Positions 15,755-57,396 of a DNA stretch of 64,000 bases are shown here, piece after piece (position 1 is the first letter of the stretch; each line of letters starts with the position of its first letter). Under the pieces are notes generated by a model. It saw only the letters and a program-made list of their open reading frames with translations, ran no database searches and was not told where the DNA came from. The position numbers and the translations under genes are program-made. Origin of the DNA: a virus; IMG/VR virus record IMGVR_UViG_3300038701_001470, positions 1,970 through 65,969 of that record; one strand, written 5' to 3'.

Positions 15755-16593
15755 AGGGAATCACGTATCAGCAGAATGGGGCCGGTCTCTCAGGGCACGG
15801 ATTGAAGGATCTCTTCTCTTCGGTAGCCATGGCCGAAATCTTCGGGGCGGAAGCCGTCTACGATGAGAGCTGGAATAACCAGAGCATCATCCCGGCCGAA
15901 CACGCTGAAATGCTTCTGGCTTCTCAGGATGACTTCAAGCGAGCTGCGATCATTCGACGAAGAAAGAAGTTCTGGACTGGAATCCCGTTCAAAGAGCTCG
16001 CGGCCGCCCGGGAAATCTTCGACGGGATGGAGGATGGAGGATTGCTCACTCTCACCAACGTATTCCGGATCCAGCCATACCAGGTCGATAATTGGGAGAG
16101 AAAGGGCCTGATCCCGGAGGGAAGTTACTCCCGTGTCATCTCGAAGCTGTCTCAGCTCTATTGGGGAGAAGAGGAGCCCTACCGTGTCGACGGCATCGCG
16201 ATTCATGTTCGCCGCGGTGAAGTCGGAACTCCCCGGCATCGTCATCACGAGTGGATGGGAGGCGGCATCTGGAACGTCGACTTCTACAATGGCATGGTGA
16301 AAGATCTCAGGGCTGAATTTCCCGAAAAGGAAATCCGAGTTTTTTCACAGAAGAGAAATTCTCGCGATCTTTTGAGACTCGGAGAAGGGGCCGAATTGAG
16401 ATTGGGAGATGACACGCAGCTTCAACTACACTTTCGTGAGCTCGTTACGGCTGAGATTCTGATTCCGGCAAATTCAGGATTCTCGACGTGGGCGGCATAC
16501 CTGAACACAGGAACCGTTCGACTGTATCAGGCTCGTGAAGTGAAGCACATCGAACATACTGAATATCCCCCACACTTCACCGTGATTTCATGA
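15751..16593 (+). CDS. putative glycosyltransferase (GT11 fucosyltransferase-like)
   Basis: N-terminal GAGLSG, IAIHVRRGE (HVRRGD-type), RVFSQ, ANSGFSTWAAYL motifs. Confidence 0.7.
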   Translation: MKGITYQQNGAGLSGHGLKDLFSSVAMAEIFGAEAVYDESWNNQSIIPAEHAEMLLASQDDFKRAAIIRRRKKFWTGIPFKELAAAREIFDGMEDGGLLTLTNVFRIQPYQVDNWERKGLIPEGSYSRVISKLSQLYWGEEEPYRVDGIAIHVRRGEVGTPRHRHHEWMGGGIWNVDFYNGMVKDLRAEFPEKEIRVFSQKRNSRDLLRLGEGAELRLGDDTQLQLHFRELVTAEILIPANSGFSTWAAYLNTGTVRLYQAREVKHIEHTEYPPHFTVIS

Positions 16594-18290
16594 GTCAGAA
16601 ACCCGATACCAGCCTAAATTTCCTCGAACGTGTCGTCGGCACGGTAGCTCCCGGATGGGCGCTCAGTCACGCTATCGGAAGGGCTCAGCTGAATCACTTC
16701 GAGTCCCGCGGTGCGAACGACGGTAGGCTGCGAGGCGATTCGGGCGGGATGAACAAGAACGGATCCCCGGAGAGTCATCGCGCCAACAAGGATCGAATCA
16801 AGACGATGTGGGATGCCCGGGACATGGAGGATAACTCTCCTCTCATCGCCGGCATTCTCGAGCGAACCACGATGTACACCGTGGGAAACCTATCCTACAA
16901 ATCGAAGACGGGAGACGGCGCGGTGGATGACCACTACGAGAGGTTTTTCGGCGAGTGGGCAAAGAACTGCGATGTCACTGGCCGGTTCTCTCTTCGGGAA
17001 ATGATCTCGATCGCCTTTCGTTCGATGCTTCGCGATGGTGACTACGGAATCGCTTTCGTCGATGTCGGGAAAGGCATCAAGCTGCAGGGCATCGAAGCAG
17101 ACCGGATCGGTTCGCCGCTCGATAGCCGTCAGGATGAAAAGCATGTCGGCGGTCTCGATCTCGACGACTTCGGACAGGTCATCAACTATCAGATCTTCAA
17201 GCGTTCACGGACGAACCAGTACACGAAGGATCGGGATTGCTCTCCGAATCACTTCATCCACTTGAACAAAGTTACTCGCTCCGACCGGTATCGTTGCAAG
17301 TCATGGCTCGCCGCGGGACTCCCTCATGCTCGTGATTTGCATGAGATTTTCGGCTTCGAGAAGCAGGGCGCGAAGTTCGCTTCGATGTGGGCTGCGTTCA
17401 TCCGGGCGAAAGATCACACTGGCCGTGGAGGATGGGACACTGAGGACAAGAAGGGCCTCAAGATCAAGGAAGCCGTTCCCGGCCTGATCACTGAACTCGA
17501 GACAGACCAGAGCATCGAGTTTGCTCCCGGTGTTCAGCGTCCGTCAGGTGCCTTCATGAATCTCGTCGAATCCGTGATTCGCAATATCGCTATCGGCCTG
17601 AACCTCCCGTATGGCTTCGTCTACAACATGGCGGCATTCGGCGGTGTTACCGCTCGCCTTGAGACTCAGCAGGCACAGCGAGTGTTCGAGACTTGGCAGC
17701 GCCTCCTGATCGACAAGGTTCTCGATCGAATCCGCGATCAGGTCATCGGATGGGGAATCGCTACCCGTCAGATCCCTGCTCATCCAAACTGGAGAAAAGG
17801 CGACTGGAGATTCGGCGCGGCCATCACAGCCGACGTTCAGCATCAGACGTCTTCTGACATCATGCTCATCGACAAAGGACTCAAGACCCGCTCTCAGTGG
17901 TGTCAGGAGCATGGCCTCGACTTCGAGGAAGTTCAGGAAGAGTGCGCTCGCGAGATGAACATCATGCGTGACGTTTCCGCTCGGAACGAGATGCCGGTTG
18001 AATTGCTTCACGAGGGTAAGCCGAATGCGACTGAGATGCTGGCTGCTATGAGTGCTCGTGATGATCCCCCTCCAGAGCCAAAAGGGATGATTGAGGAGTA
18101 TGGGGCTCAAGGAATGAAACCACTTCTCGACGTTCTCGAACAGGTCGGAGATGGCTCCATGGACAGGGAAAGCGCAATCGCTACCCTCATGGATCTCTAC
18201 GGTATCGAGTATCACAAAGCGTCGATGATGGTTCCTCAAGAACCTCGTCTCACGCAGGGTTCAGTCGTGGGGCCTCCACTGATCGGGTAA
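16590..18290 (+). CDS. portal protein (lambda family)
   Basis: ARDMEDNSP, RDGD, LQGIEADRI, IHL...RSDRYR, YGFVYNMA, GLKTRSQ motifs; 566 aa. Confidence 0.92.
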   Translation: MSQKPDTSLNFLERVVGTVAPGWALSHAIGRAQLNHFESRGANDGRLRGDSGGMNKNGSPESHRANKDRIKTMWDARDMEDNSPLIAGILERTTMYTVGNLSYKSKTGDGAVDDHYERFFGEWAKNCDVTGRFSLREMISIAFRSMLRDGDYGIAFVDVGKGIKLQGIEADRIGSPLDSRQDEKHVGGLDLDDFGQVINYQIFKRSRTNQYTKDRDCSPNHFIHLNKVTRSDRYRCKSWLAAGLPHARDLHEIFGFEKQGAKFASMWAAFIRAKDHTGRGGWDTEDKKGLKIKEAVPGLITELETDQSIEFAPGVQRPSGAFMNLVESVIRNIAIGLNLPYGFVYNMAAFGGVTARLETQQAQRVFETWQRLLIDKVLDRIRDQVIGWGIATRQIPAHPNWRKGDWRFGAAITADVQHQTSSDIMLIDKGLKTRSQWCQEHGLDFEEVQEECAREMNIMRDVSARNEMPVELLHEGKPNATEMLAAMSARDDPPPEPKGMIEEYGAQGMKPLLDVLEQVGDGSMDRESAIATLMDLYGIEYHKASMMVPQEPRLTQGSVVGPPLIG

Positions 18291-21187: not shown

Positions 21188-22021
21188 ATGATCGAACCTG
21201 AAATCACCGAACTGAGCGCGAAGCTTGATGGGGCTCTCCATGAGTTCGACAAGCTCGATCTCGGATACACCTACGCCGACGAGGATAATGATTTCCCCGT
21301 GTGCGGTAGCAATGACAACTACCGGACGAAGAAGCGGTATCCGACTGCCTACATCAGTCGTGTTTCAGATGATCCGAAGGACTTCCCGGAGACGGGCAAG
21401 GCGATCATCGAATACAAGGTGACTGAGAAGAGAACTCGTTCCTCTTCCAAATCAGGAAAGACAAAGGCACGTCACTCCATGGACATCGAGATTCACTCGA
21501 TCGAGCCCGTGAAGAAGAACGACAAGACCAAGACTTCCGATCCGGTTTCCAAGCTGAAAGGATCCGCTGAACCAGTTTCGGAGCTTTCCGACATTCGCCC
21601 AGGGATGATTGAGTTCATTTCTCTTCCGGACAAAGTAGCCAAGGCTGCAGTGAAGAAAGTTCGGAAAGTCCCGTTGAAGAAGATCGCAGCTATTTCAGGT
21701 GCTACCGCGGCGGGAACGATCGCTGGAGGCGCTATCATCCGGAGACGGAAGAAAAAGAAGGATCAGGCCGTTGAACTCGAGTCCCTTCGTCCGGGCATGA
21801 TTGAGTTCTCGGATCCCCGTCCTCGAAACCCTCAAGGTCAGTTCGCCGATGTTTCCACTGGCGGTGCAAACCCCCAGGCAATGAAGGCCGCGTATGGTCA
21901 GAAGCCGGGAGTCGCCATGGTCGGAGGGCAGGCCGGAATGGGACAACCTCTCATTCCTCGCAAGAAAGTCGTTCGTTCCGGGATTCAGCCCGTGACAAAA
22001 GCGCATCAGTCGGTAGTATAA
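21188..22021 (+). CDS. internal virion (poly)protein
   Basis: ELSAKLDGALHEF and two RPGMIEF linkers; PRPRNPQGQF motif. Confidence 0.65.
   Translation: MIEPEITELSAKLDGALHEFDKLDLGYTYADEDNDFPVCGSNDNYRTKKRYPTAYISRVSDDPKDFPETGKAIIEYKVTEKRTRSSSKSGKTKARHSMDIEIHSIEPVKKNDKTKTSDPVSKLKGSAEPVSELSDIRPGMIEFISLPDKVAKAAVKKVRKVPLKKIAAISGATAAGTIAGGAIIRRRKKKKDQAVELESLRPGMIEFSDPRPRNPQGQFADVSTGGANPQAMKAAYGQKPGVAMVGGQAGMGQPLIPRKKVVRSGIQPVTKAHQSVV
21992..22019 (+). promoter_or_regulatory. sigma70-like promoter for the tRNA-like RNA
   Basis: GTGACA (21992-21997), 16-nt spacer, TAGTAT (22014-22019); predicted start falls at G1 (22026) of the cloverleaf. Confidence 0.45.
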
Positions 22022-22025
22022 ATCG

Positions 22026-22179
22026 GCTCTCGTAGTGTAACGGCTACCAGGAAGTCGGTGAATGGTTTAGCGGCCCACACTGACGACACGCGGAAAGAGG
22101 CGACTGAATCGCGATAGGAAACCTCTTTGCACGCTCTTTGAATAAAAGGGAAGTCCCGGTTCGAGTCCGGGCGGGGGCA
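22026..22179 (+). tRNA. tRNA-like RNA with 82-nt structured insertion in the D-loop; non-canonical anticodon loop; no encoded CCA
   Basis: Acceptor GCTCTCG/CGGGGGC; D-stem GTGT/GCAC; anticodon stem CTCTT/AAGGG with loop TGAATAA; T-arm CCCGG-TTCGAGT-CCGGG; discriminator A then CTA; insert 22047-22128. Confidence 0.8.
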
Positions 22180-22218: not shown

Positions 22219-23475
22219 ATGAAAAGAGCCAAGAAGCCTCCCGTATATCACTTTGAAGTTGTAGCCCCTCTCAGCGATGCCGCTGTCGATTCCGAGAACG
22301 GAGTCATCAAAGGAGTTTCCATTATCACCTGTGGCGTTGAAGCCAGAGGGCACGATCTCGAAGTCGACGACACAACCGTTTCTCAGATGTTCCTTTGCGC
22401 GAATGGCATGGGGCAAGTTCCGGTGAAGTGGAACCACAAGAGCGGTGCCGACGCCATCAACGGTTACCTCTCCAACTTCTCTGTCGAGGGGAACAAGCTC
22501 AAGGGAGACTGGCATCTCCTCAAGACTCACGCTCAATACGATCAGGCGATCGAGCTTGCTGAGCGTATGCCGAAAAACTTCGGACTGTCCGCAGCATTCG
22601 CCGGACAGGGTGAGAAGAAGGGTGGAAAAACCAAAGCGAGGTGCACCGAACTTATTTCGGTCGATCTCGTCGCTAACCCTGCAGCGAATCCCGATGGACT
22701 GTTTGAAGCAGTTGACACTTCCGGAGATGGCATGGATCAAGAACCCACACTCGCCGATGTCCTCGCAGCTGTTCAGCAGGTGCAGAGCGATCAAGCTGCC
22801 ATCACTGAGCGTCTCGACGCCGCTGAGCAGTTCCAGAATGATCTCATTGATCAGTTCGCCGACGAAGGCGAGGGCAATGAGGAAATCGAAGACGGAGTCG
22901 AATATGAGTATATCGACGAAGCTGGAAATCCTGTTCAGGTGGGAACCGCAGTCAATGGCGGTGCACCGAACGACATCGCAAGTGCCCCAGGCACCCTTAC
23001 CGGAACTCCCGGCGCTCCCGCTGGCGCTCCTGCCATGGCCGGTGCAGCCGCTACTTCCGAGCTCGCCGCTCTTCGCCAAACGGTGACTTACCTCGCCGAG
23101 AAGGACATCGCCGAGACTGAGGCAGCTGAAAAGGCTGAGCGTGAACACGCTTTCGCAGTCGTTGATCAGAAGATCGACAAACTCGTTGAGTTCAATACGA
23201 AGCTCAAAGCCGAGAACGAGGCTCTGGTCACTGCCCTGCAGACTGCCGGTGCTTCCGCAGCTCATCTTTCCGCACCGGCTCGCGGGCCGGTTACTCATCT
23301 TTCAGCCCACGACGGCGAGCCAGCCGACGAGTGGGAAGAGCTCGTTCACGAGTTCCAGTCTCAGGACAAGGATATGCCTCCAACCAAGGCGATTCAGCTT
23401 GCGATTCAGCAGCGTCCGGATCTCTACCAGACGCACCTTGGCCGAATCGGTGTCGTGAACCAAATGGGCTCGTAA
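22219..23475 (+). CDS. prohead protease fused to scaffolding domain
   Basis: VKWNH (His), GLSA (Ser), SVDLVANPAA motifs of HK97/Mu-type proteases in the first 170 aa; acidic helical C-terminal half. Confidence 0.85.
   Translation: MKRAKKPPVYHFEVVAPLSDAAVDSENGVIKGVSIITCGVEARGHDLEVDDTTVSQMFLCANGMGQVPVKWNHKSGADAINGYLSNFSVEGNKLKGDWHLLKTHAQYDQAIELAERMPKNFGLSAAFAGQGEKKGGKTKARCTELISVDLVANPAANPDGLFEAVDTSGDGMDQEPTLADVLAAVQQVQSDQAAITERLDAAEQFQNDLIDQFADEGEGNEEIEDGVEYEYIDEAGNPVQVGTAVNGGAPNDIASAPGTLTGTPGAPAGAPAMAGAAATSELAALRQTVTYLAEKDIAETEAAEKAEREHAFAVVDQKIDKLVEFNTKLKAENEALVTALQTAGASAAHLSAPARGPVTHLSAHDGEPADEWEELVHEFQSQDKDMPPTKAIQLAIQQRPDLYQTHLGRIGVVNQMGS
22732..23475 (+). CDS. putative nested in-frame scaffolding protein
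   Basis: In-frame ATG (codon 172) preceded by TTGACA-N14, the same signature as free-standing late genes; lambda C/Nu3-like arrangement. Confidence 0.55.
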   Translation: MDQEPTLADVLAAVQQVQSDQAAITERLDAAEQFQNDLIDQFADEGEGNEEIEDGVEYEYIDEAGNPVQVGTAVNGGAPNDIASAPGTLTGTPGAPAGAPAMAGAAATSELAALRQTVTYLAEKDIAETEAAEKAEREHAFAVVDQKIDKLVEFNTKLKAENEALVTALQTAGASAAHLSAPARGPVTHLSAHDGEPADEWEELVHEFQSQDKDMPPTKAIQLAIQQRPDLYQTHLGRIGVVNQMGS

Positions 23476-23540: not shown

Positions 23541-23888
23541 ATGAATAAAAATTGCGTCATTTCCCTTCCTATCGCCGAGGATACCAAGATCGCCGCGTTC
23601 ACTCGGGTCAAGCTCGATGAGAACGGCCAGGTAGTCGTGGCAGACGCCGGCGACAAGGCCATCGGCCACACCGAACTCGATGTGGATGGGTCAAATGGCA
23701 GACCGGTTTGCGATGTGTATCGCACCAATGGGGGAGGATCGCACTACGCGATTGCTTCCGAAGCATTCACTCCCGGACAGGAGTTCGAGGGTGCCGATGA
23801 CGGTGAGATTGCCGTTCTGGATGCCGGAACAGCTGAGGGCCAAGCTCTCGAAGCTGGAGACGGAACCATCCGAGTTCTCTACTACTAA
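23541..23888 (+). CDS. head decoration/cement protein (DUF2190-like)
   Basis: 115 aa between scaffold and major capsid; paralogue of 26048..26446. Confidence 0.7.
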   Translation: MNKNCVISLPIAEDTKIAAFTRVKLDENGQVVVADAGDKAIGHTELDVDGSNGRPVCDVYRTNGGGSHYAIASEAFTPGQEFEGADDGEIAVLDAGTAEGQALEAGDGTIRVLYY

Positions 23889-23952: not shown

Positions 23953-24912
23953 ATGTATGCTAACTCCGCAGCCGTAAGCCGGCCCGAAATCTCCACCTTT
24001 CTTGAGGAGGCGACCAAGGCAGAAGACTTCTACATCGCGCAGAAGATCATGCCCGTCTTCACCTCGAAATCGAGGGCTGGACGATACCCGCGTCTCAAAA
24101 TCGAGAACGGTGAACTCATGAAAGCCCAGTCGACCCTTCGTGGCCCTTCTGGTACCTACAATGAGGTCGCACGTAAGTTCGATTGGGAGACCTACGACTG
24201 TGAAGATCGCGGTCTCGAAGAGCGCATCGACGATGTGAATGCTCGTGAGATGCAGAACTTCTTCGACACCGAAGTTGTGACTGCCAAGCTGGTTCGCCGG
24301 TCGGTTGTTCTCGACTACGAGAAGCGTGTCGCCGATCAGATCATGAATCCTGATTCGTTCAATGCAGTCGCATCCCACGTTGGATACACTGAGGCGAATC
24401 TCGCTACGATCGACTTTGCCCGGGATCTTCTCGATGCAGTTGAGCGTCTTGAGCAGCGTGCTCAAATGGCGAACACCATGATTCTCACCCGTGCGGTGTT
24501 CAACCTGCTTCGTCGCTCCAAGCTTCTGCAGACCTACCTCTTCGGTAATCTCGGAGCTGGAACCGAGCATCGTCTGATCAACCCAACGGACATCGGAAAT
24601 GCTTTCGGCATCAAAGACGTCCGGATCGCGGCTGCGACCTACGACCGCGCTCAAAAGGGCAAGCCGAAAGAACTCGTTCCGGTTTGGAAGAACGATTACA
24701 TCTTCCTTGGCAATGTTCAGGGCGGTGACTTCGAGAACGGCGGTATCGGTCGGACGATCGTTTGGGACTCCGATTCTCCCGGTGGACTCTTTGCGACCGA
24801 AACCTATCGCGACGAGAAGCGCCGCGGTAACATGGTTCGAGTCCGCATGAACACCGACGAGAAGATCGTCGACGAGACTGCCGGTGAGCTGATCACCACT
24901 CAGTTCGAGTAG
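23953..24912 (+). CDS. major capsid protein (lambda gpE-like)
   Basis: 319 aa; IAQKIMPVF, YDCEDRGLEERIDD, LDYEKRVA; position followed by strong terminator. Confidence 0.88.
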   Translation: MYANSAAVSRPEISTFLEEATKAEDFYIAQKIMPVFTSKSRAGRYPRLKIENGELMKAQSTLRGPSGTYNEVARKFDWETYDCEDRGLEERIDDVNAREMQNFFDTEVVTAKLVRRSVVLDYEKRVADQIMNPDSFNAVASHVGYTEANLATIDFARDLLDAVERLEQRAQMANTMILTRAVFNLLRRSKLLQTYLFGNLGAGTEHRLINPTDIGNAFGIKDVRIAAATYDRAQKGKPKELVPVWKNDYIFLGNVQGGDFENGGIGRTIVWDSDSPGGLFATETYRDEKRRGNMVRVRMNTDEKIVDETAGELITTQFE

Positions 24913-55152: not shown

Positions 55153-55356
55153 TCATTTCAGAAACCAGCTGGCGATCATTCCTCCGACGAAGCCGGCAAC
55201 GCCACCCACGACAAGGGCGCGTTGCTCAGCATCTTCCAGAGTTGAGTAGAATTTAGAGAAGGTTTCGGTACCGGCATCGATCGATACGCTCAGCAACCAG
55301 AAGATCAGGCCAAGGCAGGCCACGATGAAGATGACGAGGTAGGCAACTTTCATCAC
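55153..55356 (-). CDS. small membrane protein
   Basis: Two hydrophobic segments. Confidence 0.55.
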   Translation of the reverse strand: MMKVAYLVIFIVACLGLIFWLLSVSIDAGTETFSKFYSTLEDAEQRALVVGGVAGFVGGMIASWFLK

Positions 55357-56222
55357 TTGTAGATCTCCAATGGTTCGAGGGTTTCAGTGTGAGAAGGCCA
55401 GTGATCGTCGGCGAGGCACCGGCAATACCGCTTGAGCATGTCGAGGTATCCCTCGATGACTCCCCACTTCTCACGACGGCCGTTTCGCCCTACCTCGATG
55501 TCGGATGGCTCGAGATAGTATGACGCCACCGAAAACGGAGAGCTGTTCGACTGCACGATGAACGCGAAGTTGTCACGGGCCTCGAAGCACTCGCGGTAGC
55601 CGTCCAAGTAGAAAGCGGCCTGAATGTCGTAGCGGAGATATTTCGCCGACATGCGGAATTTGTGTTTCCGGGGATCCCGGCTCGTCTTGAAGTCGGCGAG
55701 GTATGGATCGTCGATTCCAGCGCCGTCGATGAGGCACTTCAACGGGACGGTAATACCGGTGTCTTCGTCGAAGTATTCCCACTGGCAAAACACCTGCTTG
55801 TCAGCATTCCCGAAGATGGCTTGAGCCTCGTCGTTCTCGAGAAGAACAGCCAGTGCCTTCTTCGCCATGTTGAGTTGGAAATCGTTCACGACTTCCTTCC
55901 CTGATGCCTCGGCTTCCTTCATCCAGTTCTTACACCAGTTGGAATTCCCGCTCCAAGGCTTCTTCAAATCTGGATTCGCCTTCGTTGGCGCCGGATAGGT
56001 TTTCGGGCGTAGAGTGTAGCGGTTGCTGAACTCATCGGGAGTGAGGAACATCACATCGACGAGACTCCCCCACTCGGTTGAGGGGCTTCCGTCAAAGGAC
56101 TTCCCCTGTCTCCATTCCCAAGGGCAGTCACCAAAGGTAACGAGCTCTGTTCGGGACATGATGTATTCGGGGTTACCGCGGGGAATGTCAGCTCCCAATC
56201 CAAAGTATTCTTGATCTTTCAT
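55353..56222 (-). CDS. PD-(D/E)XK exonuclease (RecE/ExoVIII, DUF3799-like)
   Basis: KCLIDG...ADFKTS, YDIQAAFYLDG; start moved to ATG 56222 because the track extension covers the tRNA-like element. Confidence 0.85.
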   Translation of the reverse strand: MKDQEYFGLGADIPRGNPEYIMSRTELVTFGDCPWEWRQGKSFDGSPSTEWGSLVDVMFLTPDEFSNRYTLRPKTYPAPTKANPDLKKPWSGNSNWCKNWMKEAEASGKEVVNDFQLNMAKKALAVLLENDEAQAIFGNADKQVFCQWEYFDEDTGITVPLKCLIDGAGIDDPYLADFKTSRDPRKHKFRMSAKYLRYDIQAAFYLDGYRECFEARDNFAFIVQSNSSPFSVASYYLEPSDIEVGRNGRREKWGVIEGYLDMLKRYCRCLADDHWPSHTETLEPLEIYK

Positions 56223-56233
56223 AGTAAATAAGG

Positions 56234-56333
56234 AGAGGCGAGATGGAGTTGAACCATCCTGATCCGTTGGGTACCCCGGATCATTCTCCCGGTCGGGTTG
56301 CAATCCCCGCCATAGCCGCTACCGGCCCGCCTC
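56234..56333 (-). tRNA. tRNA(Cys)-like RNA with degenerate anticodon arm and enlarged structured variable region; no encoded CCA
   Basis: Acceptor GAGGCGG/TCGCCTC, discriminator U; D-loop AGCGGCTA; GGGGA-TTGCAA-CCC; extra stem TGATCCG/CGGATCA; T-arm GATGG-TTCAACT-CCATC. Confidence 0.6.
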
Positions 56334-56346
56334 GTTTGGGTTGAAA

Positions 56347-57396
56347 TTACTCAGCGTCGTTCTCGCGAACTTGCTCAACGACTCCCATGAAGGTATCGAA
56401 GTCCTCAAGGATGACAGTCATCTTGTCCTCGGGGATAAGCTCGATCGACTCAGGACTTCCGAAACCGAGAAGCTTCGCAGCTTCGACCGCTTCGTACGGC
56501 TCAACCTTCTCATCCACGAGCTTCTTGCGAAGCGCGGCCAGTGTCGGCTCTTCCGGATCCGCGGATTCTTCCTTTGCCGGCGTAGCTTTGGCCTCTTCTT
56601 TGGGAGGGGCCTCTTCTTTCGCTTCGGGCTTTGGAGTCGCCTCGGGTTTGGCCTCGGGCTCAGAATCGGCGGGCTTGGCCTCATCCATGGGGATCTCGTC
56701 GGCATCGGGCTCAGTTGCCCGGGTTTTCTTTTCGAGAGATTTAGCCTGGGTGGTTTTACCCTTGCCTTTCGACGGGAATCCGGATGGACGGTTCGAGTCG
56801 TCTGTCACATCGGAGACATCGGCTTGGATCGCTGCGAACTTCTCGGCATCCTCTTCGTCGTAGATTCCGCTGATACCAAAAGCGACACGGCCACACTGCA
56901 TGATCGTCTTGTGACGAAGCATTCGGTGTTTCATCTTCCACGGTTCGGTGGGACGATAACACTCTTCGAGGTACTCAGTGATGACAGTCGGATAGTCGCG
57001 ATCCTTCACATGAATGGTGCAGGTGCAGGAAACGAGTTCACCATCGGCATCGAAGTTGTCGACGGTTTCGAGGCCGTTGAACTTCTCCTGACGATTGATG
57101 ATGTTGAGCCAGCCATCGACACCGACAACCGGAACGATGCCCCCGCCTTTTGCGGGGAAGGCATACATTTCGCGGAGAAGCGGGTTGAGTTGGTACTCGT
57201 TGGCGACGACGACGAGAGCGAGCATTTCCTCTTCGGAACGGCACTCTTTGAAAACGGTAGTTTGAAGCGTCTTGAGGAGCTTCTTCGGATCGACACTGAG
57301 GCGGCGAGCCATCACTGCGAGCGCACTCGGCTTTTGCCCTGGGGCTTGCTGAGTTGCTGGAGCTTGAGTCGGGGCCTCTTGGATTGCTGTGGTCAT
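56347..57396 (-). CDS. bet: single-strand annealing recombinase (Bet/RecT family)
   Basis: YQLNPLLREMYAF, PVVGVDGW..IIN, EYLEEC, PW..KHRMLRHK...QCGRVAFG. Confidence 0.92.
   Translation of the reverse strand: MTTAIQEAPTQAPATQQAPGQKPSALAVMARRLSVDPKKLLKTLQTTVFKECRSEEEMLALVVVANEYQLNPLLREMYAFPAKGGGIVPVVGVDGWLNIINRQEKFNGLETVDNFDADGELVSCTCTIHVKDRDYPTVITEYLEECYRPTEPWKMKHRMLRHKTIMQCGRVAFGISGIYDEEDAEKFAAIQADVSDVTDDSNRPSGFPSKGKGKTTQAKSLEKKTRATEPDADEIPMDEAKPADSEPEAKPEATPKPEAKEEAPPKEEAKATPAKEESADPEEPTLAALRKKLVDEKVEPYEAVEAAKLLGFGSPESIELIPEDKMTVILEDFDTFMGVVEQVRENDAE

Follow-up and report, generated by a model that had tools for sequence, protein, structure and literature searches.

A tRNA-derived element interrupted in its D-loop within the head-gene operon of a phage that most likely infects Verrucomicrobiota

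What kind of gene occupies a 154-nt interval in a phage head operon that carries both ends of a tRNA and yet is called by no standard tRNA finder? The interval, referred to here as element 1, was studied in a window of 64,000 nucleotides, the whole stretch of DNA analyzed, which belongs to a 67.6 kb virus record (IMGVR_UViG_3300038701_001470) of a tailed phage that CheckV rates as complete. Element 1 (22026-22179, + strand) fills the 197-nt gap between a 277-aa and a 418-aa ORF, and all three are co-oriented on the + strand. Most probably, it is either a tRNA look-alike that is not spliced and does not decode, or a tRNA gene that has died, and we place it among the tRNA-like or degenerate tRNA genes of phages. 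The head genes that define its setting are as follows:

16590-18290: lambda-type portal gene
21188-22021, + strand: ORF for a 277-aa head protein, directly upstream of element 1
22219-23475, + strand: 418-aa protease/scaffold-like head gene, downstream of element 1, the syntenic anchor for relatives
23541-23888: scaffold-like ORF, after the 418-aa gene
23953-24912: major head protein gene, after the scaffold-like ORF

For the 418-aa ORF itself (22219-23475), a Pfam or PHROG match was not found. Its homologues, at about 40-50% identity, reside in contigs of Verrucomicrobiota MAGs (Verrucomicrobiae, Akkermansiaceae, Opitutaceae, and Chthoniobacter), one of these contigs being 1.9 Mb long, which makes a member of the Verrucomicrobiota the most likely host of the phage. 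The DNA originates from algae-associated metagenomes. In a second DNA run, contigs end on either side of element 1, which is uninformative. An ordinary tRNA was not found in the phage genome with either ARAGORN or the Rfam tRNA family RF00005.

Element 1 divides into three parts:

22026-22046, + strand: 5′ tRNA part, comprising the acceptor 5′ strand GCTCTCG, U8 and A9, the D-stem strand GTGT, and the D-loop AACGGCTA
22047-22128, + strand: D-loop insert of 82 nt, between the D-loop and the D-stem 3′ strand
22129-22179, + strand: 3′ tRNA part, comprising GCAC, G26, an anticodon-like arm, the variable loop, the T-arm, the acceptor 3′ strand, and A

Read across the insert, the two tRNA parts form a cloverleaf in which all four stems are fully paired, with 21 of 21 pairs intact. 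The acceptor joins GCTCTCG (22026-32) to CGGGGGC (22172-78) through 7 bp, two of them G-U pairs. The D-arm consists of GTGT (22035-38), a loop (22039-46) that holds A14, G18, G19, and A21, and GCAC (22129-32). A variable loop of 4 nt (AAGT) is followed by the T-arm CCCGG-TTCGAGT-CCGGG (22155-71) with its perfect stem. U8, G26, T54-T55-C56, A58, and a purine at position 37 complete the set of conserved nucleotides, and the 7-bp acceptor, the 5-bp T-stem, and the T-loop of the TTCRANY type are those of a canonical tRNA. The discriminator A73 lies at 22179, with no CCA encoded after it. In the anticodon-like arm, CTCTT-TGAATAA-AAGGG (22134-50), the loop UGAAUAA presents G33 and the anticodon AAU; U33, which is close to universal in tRNAs, is absent. 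The original prediction had described the same coordinates and arms, including the 7-bp acceptor, the perfect T-arm, the G33 loop with AAU, and the missing CCA, and the sequence bears it out on each point.

In its native form, element 1 is not called as a tRNA by ARAGORN at default settings, and RF00005 and all of Rfam give no match at gathering thresholds, or even at E<=10; matches to Gut-1 and ncrMT1302 near the element at E<=10 were dismissed as noise. The native sequence has no contiguous D-arm, no detection at the family threshold, and no U33 with an anticodon of the host's domain. Excision of 22047-22128, which had been proposed to leave a complete cloverleaf, did so: in place of nothing, ARAGORN at default settings called a 72-nt tRNA-Ile(aat) with the same G33 loop. 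When the acceptor and T-arm were held fixed and the 122-nt interior was shuffled, a complete cloverleaf after a single deletion was obtained in just 13 of 5000 shuffles, and the two halves are for this reason genuinely tRNA-derived. Element 1 is a tRNA-derived gene interrupted in its D-loop, with its acceptor/T-arm half intact.

The junction has no unique position: 29 alternatives inside the D-loop serve equally well, and for 110 different deletions in the element the ARAGORN call is Ile(aat). Through 365 other deletions, the same scan arrived at Ser(tga), a weak reading of class-II-like form that was rejected because its D-stem has 2 of 4 pairs and it again has G33. A call of Ala(tgc) for the native element, with a poor stem, could only be forced at low threshold with the intron and tmRNA options of ARAGORN and was likewise set aside. 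No tmRNA was detected in the element by ARAGORN -m or Rfam.

The insert had been predicted to be structured. Both of its helices (helix 1, 22054-60 with 22078-84; helix 2, 22094-100 with 22122-28) are indeed recovered in the fold of the full-length 154 nt, with pair probabilities of 0.88-0.99, but their stability does not exceed that of shuffled sequence: the insert alone scores z -0.53 against dinucleotide shuffles, 56 of 200 of which fold as well. The whole element scores z -1.03. In the full-length fold, the acceptor, T, and anticodon-like helices reach pair probabilities of 0.8-0.94, the D-stem has a probability of about zero in the thermodynamic ensemble, and a fold constrained to the cloverleaf lies 4.6 kcal/mol above the MFE. 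Because the D-stem is not predicted and the insert folds at shuffle level, an L-shape for the element is uncertain. The fold predictions permit the insert to be a structured module and do not support this beyond chance.

As to its origin, the insert resembles neither the tRNA body nor a second tRNA-like element of the phage (described below) beyond the level of shuffles. It has no repeats in the rest of the phage genome and no blastn match among GenBank phages. Given the lack of similarity to tRNA body, second element, and genome, it is neither an internal duplication nor a nested tRNA. A 7-nt direct repeat, CTCTTTG, is present at 22123-22129, from the insert end into the D-stem, and at 22134-22140 in the anticodon-like stem; since AAAGAG (22094-99) can pair with either copy, alternative folds are possible.

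Homologues of element 1 were sought in 31 related viral records and at 80 loci that encode a homologue of the 418-aa protein. Upstream of the protease gene, none of the 80 syntenic loci contains an element comparable to element 1. RF00005 retrieved no homologue of it from the 31 related records, and a covariance model built here to tolerate a long insert at the D-arm (R1) retrieved only ordinary tRNAs of 71-74 nt from the same set. Five complete relatives showed nothing aberrant in a custom acceptor/T-arm scan. Exact patterns of the 5′ half and the anticodon region gave 0 matches in metagenome contigs, and the sole match of an exact 25-mer from the 3′ half in viral contigs (L129) was rejected as an att-like tRNA 3′ fragment. 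Blastn of the element against phage GenBank entries matched nothing but a 33-nt T-arm stretch of crAss-like tRNA-Gln, and its D-arm pattern occurs twice in 301 Verrucomicrobiota genomes, below the control rate. No RNA run holding the sequence is listed among sequencing runs. Element 1 is a singleton, with no homologue in any collection searched.

The relatives nevertheless place tRNA genes in the same neighborhood. Most of the 31 related records have one canonical tRNA within or near the head module, as detected with RF00005. With few exceptions, this tRNA is a tRNA-Met(CAT) that has C1:A72 or U1:A72 as its first pair and is thus initiator-like (L082-L099, G001-G017). Because the tRNA-Met genes are co-oriented inside the head module, tRNA genes within the head operon are a habit of the family; the phage with element 1 lacks this initiator-like tRNA-Met. 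Element 1 shares its co-oriented placement in the head module and a short AACGG-type D-loop with the tRNA-Met(CAT) and tRNA-Gln(UUG) genes of relatives. The latter differ from it in being contiguous (71-77 nt), in having U33 and standard anticodons, and in scoring 50-64 bits with RF00005, whereas element 1 is split, has G33, and is invisible to RF00005. The closest body to the joined halves is a tRNA-Gln(UUG) of one relative (G016), with 51 of 72 positions identical, and the D-arm and 4-nt variable loop resemble Verrucomicrobial tRNA-Glu(UUC), the gene for which is likewise without encoded CCA. By these resemblances, the body is of the Gln/Glu type.

Several observations were made in passing on these relatives. 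In one (G006), about 350 nt separate tRNA-Met from the protease gene that follows, and a small ORF occupies this interval. Directly behind the tRNA-Met, this ORF of 92 aa (L010:1179-1456) encodes on its own a homologue of the module with which the 277-aa ORF ends (21788-22021; DPRPRN..GQF..AAY). In another (L097, G017:C1:26512-26583), a 72-nt sequence scores 49 bits with RF00005 and receives no ARAGORN call. Among phages distantly related through the exonuclease gene, L204:765-838 is an intact tRNA-Met, while the 3′ halves in L181:678-838 and L186:19-179 are identical to it, their 5′ halves have diverged, and ARAGORN rejects both.

The phage carries a second aberrant tRNA-like element, element 2, between the genes for RecT and a PDDEXK exonuclease:

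55353-56222: PDDEXK exonuclease gene
56234-56334, - strand: element 2, filling the gap between the RecT and PDDEXK exonuclease genes
56347-57396: RecT gene

Element 2 has a 7-bp acceptor and the T-arm GATGG-TTCAACT-CCATC, with a long rod-like arm before the latter, and it lies 11 nt upstream of the next start codon. The D-loop of element 2, AGCGGCTA, differs little from that of element 1. It is followed directly by a hairpin of 19 nt whose loop (AUUGCAA) is anticodon-like; the D-stem CGGT/ACCG encloses both. Its fold is better than that of shuffles, at z -3.3. Against the tRNA-Sec model it scores 20 bits, below the cut-off, and ARAGORN calls it a tRNA only if one specific stretch of 11 nt is removed. 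Two elements of the same phage thus both carry extra material after the D-loop motif GGCTA. Element 2 has no equivalent at 80 loci that surround exonuclease-gene relatives. A segment of it (56297-56322, - strand; GUAGCG...CGGGGAUUGCAAC) gives weak, nonsignificant matches to the CRISPR repeat models DR9 (E 1.4) and DR31 (E 4.4).

The reading of element 1 that we favor, with a probability of roughly 45%, is that of a tRNA-derived RNA that neither decodes nor loses its insert by splicing, with an acceptor/T-arm half that RNase P and RNase Z still cleave. That the element is transcribed, that both enzymes cut it, that the product is stable, and that it has any role in trans are inferences. A tRNA gene with a Gln/Glu-type body, located in the head operon, would have gained 82 nt in its D-loop and a non-canonical anticodon loop (U-G33-AAU-A-A). 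Given these two changes, the element would no longer decode and the insert would remain unspliced. Transcription may proceed with, or begin at the head of, the protease-scaffold-capsid transcript. Alternatively, it could start at G1 from a weak promoter-like site:

21992-22019, + strand: sigma-70-like promoter candidate, with GTGACA (21992-97), a 16-nt spacer, and TAGTAT (22014-19)

This candidate shares bases with the stop codon that closes the 277-aa ORF and matches the consensus at 9 of 12 positions. The promoter had been proposed to start transcription at G1, and a start near 22026 is what the site predicts; its match frequency is that of chance, with 1 site found and 0.6 expected in shuffles.

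RNase P, RNase Z, and the CCA-adding enzyme accept acceptor/T-arm minihelices. Because RNase P and RNase Z need only this half of a tRNA, they would be expected to excise element 1. Host RNase P would cut at G1, unless transcription begins there, and RNase Z would cut after A73, which would leave the head-gene mRNA with a 5′ end 39 nt before the start codon. The released product would be a stable tRNA-shaped RNA of roughly 154 nt that retains the insert. A noncoding RNA or decoy and an RNase P/Z processing signal, two of the options raised at the outset, are both compatible with the anatomy of the element, given its intact acceptor/T-arm half, its G33 loop, and the way it fills the intergenic gap. 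Element 2, being well folded (z -3.3) and carrying its insert after the same D-loop motif, also counts in favor of a processed RNA.

Such an RNA would resemble the t-elements of plant mitochondria, in which tRNA-like structures define the ends of mRNAs via RNase P and RNase Z (PMC1920247). Like them, element 1 is a non-decoding acceptor/T-arm mimic that lies between genes of a polycistronic unit and is co-oriented with the genes that flank it. The t-elements, in contrast, are organellar and have mapped transcript ends; for element 1, cleavage is a prediction, and the D-loop and anticodon-like parts are retained. The YrlA-type Y RNAs of bacteria and phages offer a second comparison, as non-decoding RNAs with a tRNA-like domain that mimics D- and T-arm features (PMC4201824). 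Their ends, however, form a Ro-binding stem with the tRNA-like module internal, whereas the ends of element 1 form an acceptor stem, and YrlA or Y RNA models of the Rfam type give no match to the element at E<=10.

Should the RNA be made and processed, it would mean that bacteriophages, like plant mitochondria, punctuate operons with non-decoding tRNA-shaped elements and that the D-loop of a tRNA frame can carry a large insert. Phage annotations may then miss such genes systematically, because standard tRNA finders do not detect them.

A serious contender, nearly as likely as the processed RNA, is that element 1 is a neutral, recently inactivated tRNA pseudogene and serves as spacer DNA only. 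Its singleton status speaks for this, as neither a homologue nor a conserved position was found in the 31 related records and 80 syntenic loci. So do the insert without a fold signal and the G33 and AAU of the anticodon loop, which are not features of bacterial decoding. The phage prefers ATC over ATT (709 versus 225 codons), and an Ile(AAU) tRNA that reads AUU would hence bring no obvious gain. Degenerate tRNA copies are moreover known in other phages (L181 and L186 versus L204). On the other side stand the preservation of all 21 stem pairs and of the conserved tertiary nucleotides, the placement of the insertion in a loop rather than a stem, and the presence of a second aberrant but well-folded element (z -3.3) in a compact genome without a normal tRNA. 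A dead tRNA with such an acceptor/T-arm would, in addition, still be cut by processing enzymes, which we count against inactivity. The element is only two events (the insertion and the change of U33 to G) away from an intact AAU tRNA, so that a recent neutral pseudogene would look identical. Were it nothing but a dead gene, element 1 would be of little interest beyond showing how a tRNA gene decays in a lineage of Verrucomicrobiota phages whose other members retain an initiator-type tRNA in the head operon.

Less probable by a wide step is a function in trans, in which the RNA of element 1 would act as a tRNA mimic and, as decoy or sponge, occupy a tRNA-sensing or tRNA-cleaving factor of the host. 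Anticodon nucleases and toxins that modify the acceptor end are examples of such targets, and the insert and G33 loop would render the mimic resistant or non-decoding. An intact tRNA body altered only in the anticodon loop and D-loop would suit this role, as would a phage that encodes two different tRNA-like RNAs and zero decoding tRNAs; the initiator-type tRNA-Met of relatives would be compatible with the replacement of a cleaved host tRNA. The decoy is disfavored in that nothing links element 1 to any defense system, it has no homologues, and its insert shows neither a fold nor a motif signal.

We consider it similarly unlikely that the tRNA frame is a carrier, with a D-loop module (82 nt in element 1, 19 nt in element 2) that is either kept in a stable RNA, processed by RNase P/Z and acting on a tRNA-sensing host factor, or spliced out by an undescribed bacterial D-loop route. 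If either were true, the elements would represent a new class of phage tRNA-derived RNA.

Decoding is a much weaker prospect still. Under this explanation, which we regard as very improbable, element 1 would be a functional tRNA from which an 82-nt intron of a new or relaxed type is removed, or one that decodes with the insert retained. It draws on the precise removal of 82 nt to give a cloverleaf that ARAGORN accepts, on an insert helix 2 that ends at the junction, and on the existence of D-arm introns elsewhere. Such introns are known only from systems that depend on a bulge-helix-bulge (BHB), in archaea and the red alga Cyanidioschyzon merolae, where D-arm and D-loop introns require the BHB together with a splicing endonuclease of archaeal or eukaryal type and a ligase (PMC3695527, PMC3241643, PMC9602550). 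Element 1 resembles them in having an extra segment in the D-arm whose removal restores the cloverleaf. It differs in lacking a BHB, in a host that is likely bacterial (Verrucomicrobiota), and in a phage genome without the corresponding enzymes. The D-arm, D-loop, and intron passages of a review of non-canonical tRNAs describe no large D-loop insert (PMC7609411).

The original prediction had noted the absence of a BHB, and two scans agree with it. When every pair of cut sites was scanned strictly for the hBHBh′ motif, in which two bulges of 3 nt flank a 4-bp helix at the splice sites, no match lay at a junction compatible with a remaining cloverleaf. A relaxed scan gave only arrangements whose flanking helices are 2 bp long and consist of the D-stem itself. 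No family match in the phage genome points to a splicing endonuclease (EndA), RtcB, or an RNA ligase (PF01974, PF01139, and PF09414), or to a CCA-adding enzyme. The insert has no Rfam intron or ribozyme match at E<=10. Group I and group II introns are far larger than 82 nt, with a catalytic core of at least about 200 nt. In two genomes of the host group, the insert-tolerant model returned no tRNA match longer than 97 nt. Finally, any spliced product would keep G33 and the non-bacterial AAU; we know of no bacterium that uses this anticodon. The suggestion of a new small intron therefore fares poorly, given the missing BHB, the missing Rfam intron or ribozyme match, and the missing splicing enzymes of the phage.

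That element 1 is a chance resemblance or an assembly artefact is scarcely credible: although a loose scan for acceptor plus T-arm gives about 0.8 matches per shuffled window, a full cloverleaf after one deletion is as rare as reported above (13 of 5000 shuffles), the T-loop and D-loop are canonical, and in the source run a single 35-kb contig of depth 706 spans the site without differences, variants, or alternative joints.

A last observation concerns the anticodon. In the searched material, A34 Ile anticodons occur only in a eukaryote-type array (L234, G035:C198:1300-3000), which was rejected as a Verrucomicrobial source of Ile(AAU) since its tRNAs are of eukaryote type and it is probably mis-binned. 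The array is tight, with at least 9 eukaryote-type tRNA genes on a 3-kb contig assigned to an Oceaniferula MAG. Its A34 anticodons are Ser AGA, Ile AAT, Pro AGG, and Val AAC, and one of its genes is a class-I tRNA-Tyr(GTA) whose intron, at 37/38, is 24 nt long. The contig is probably mis-binned algal or giant-virus DNA.
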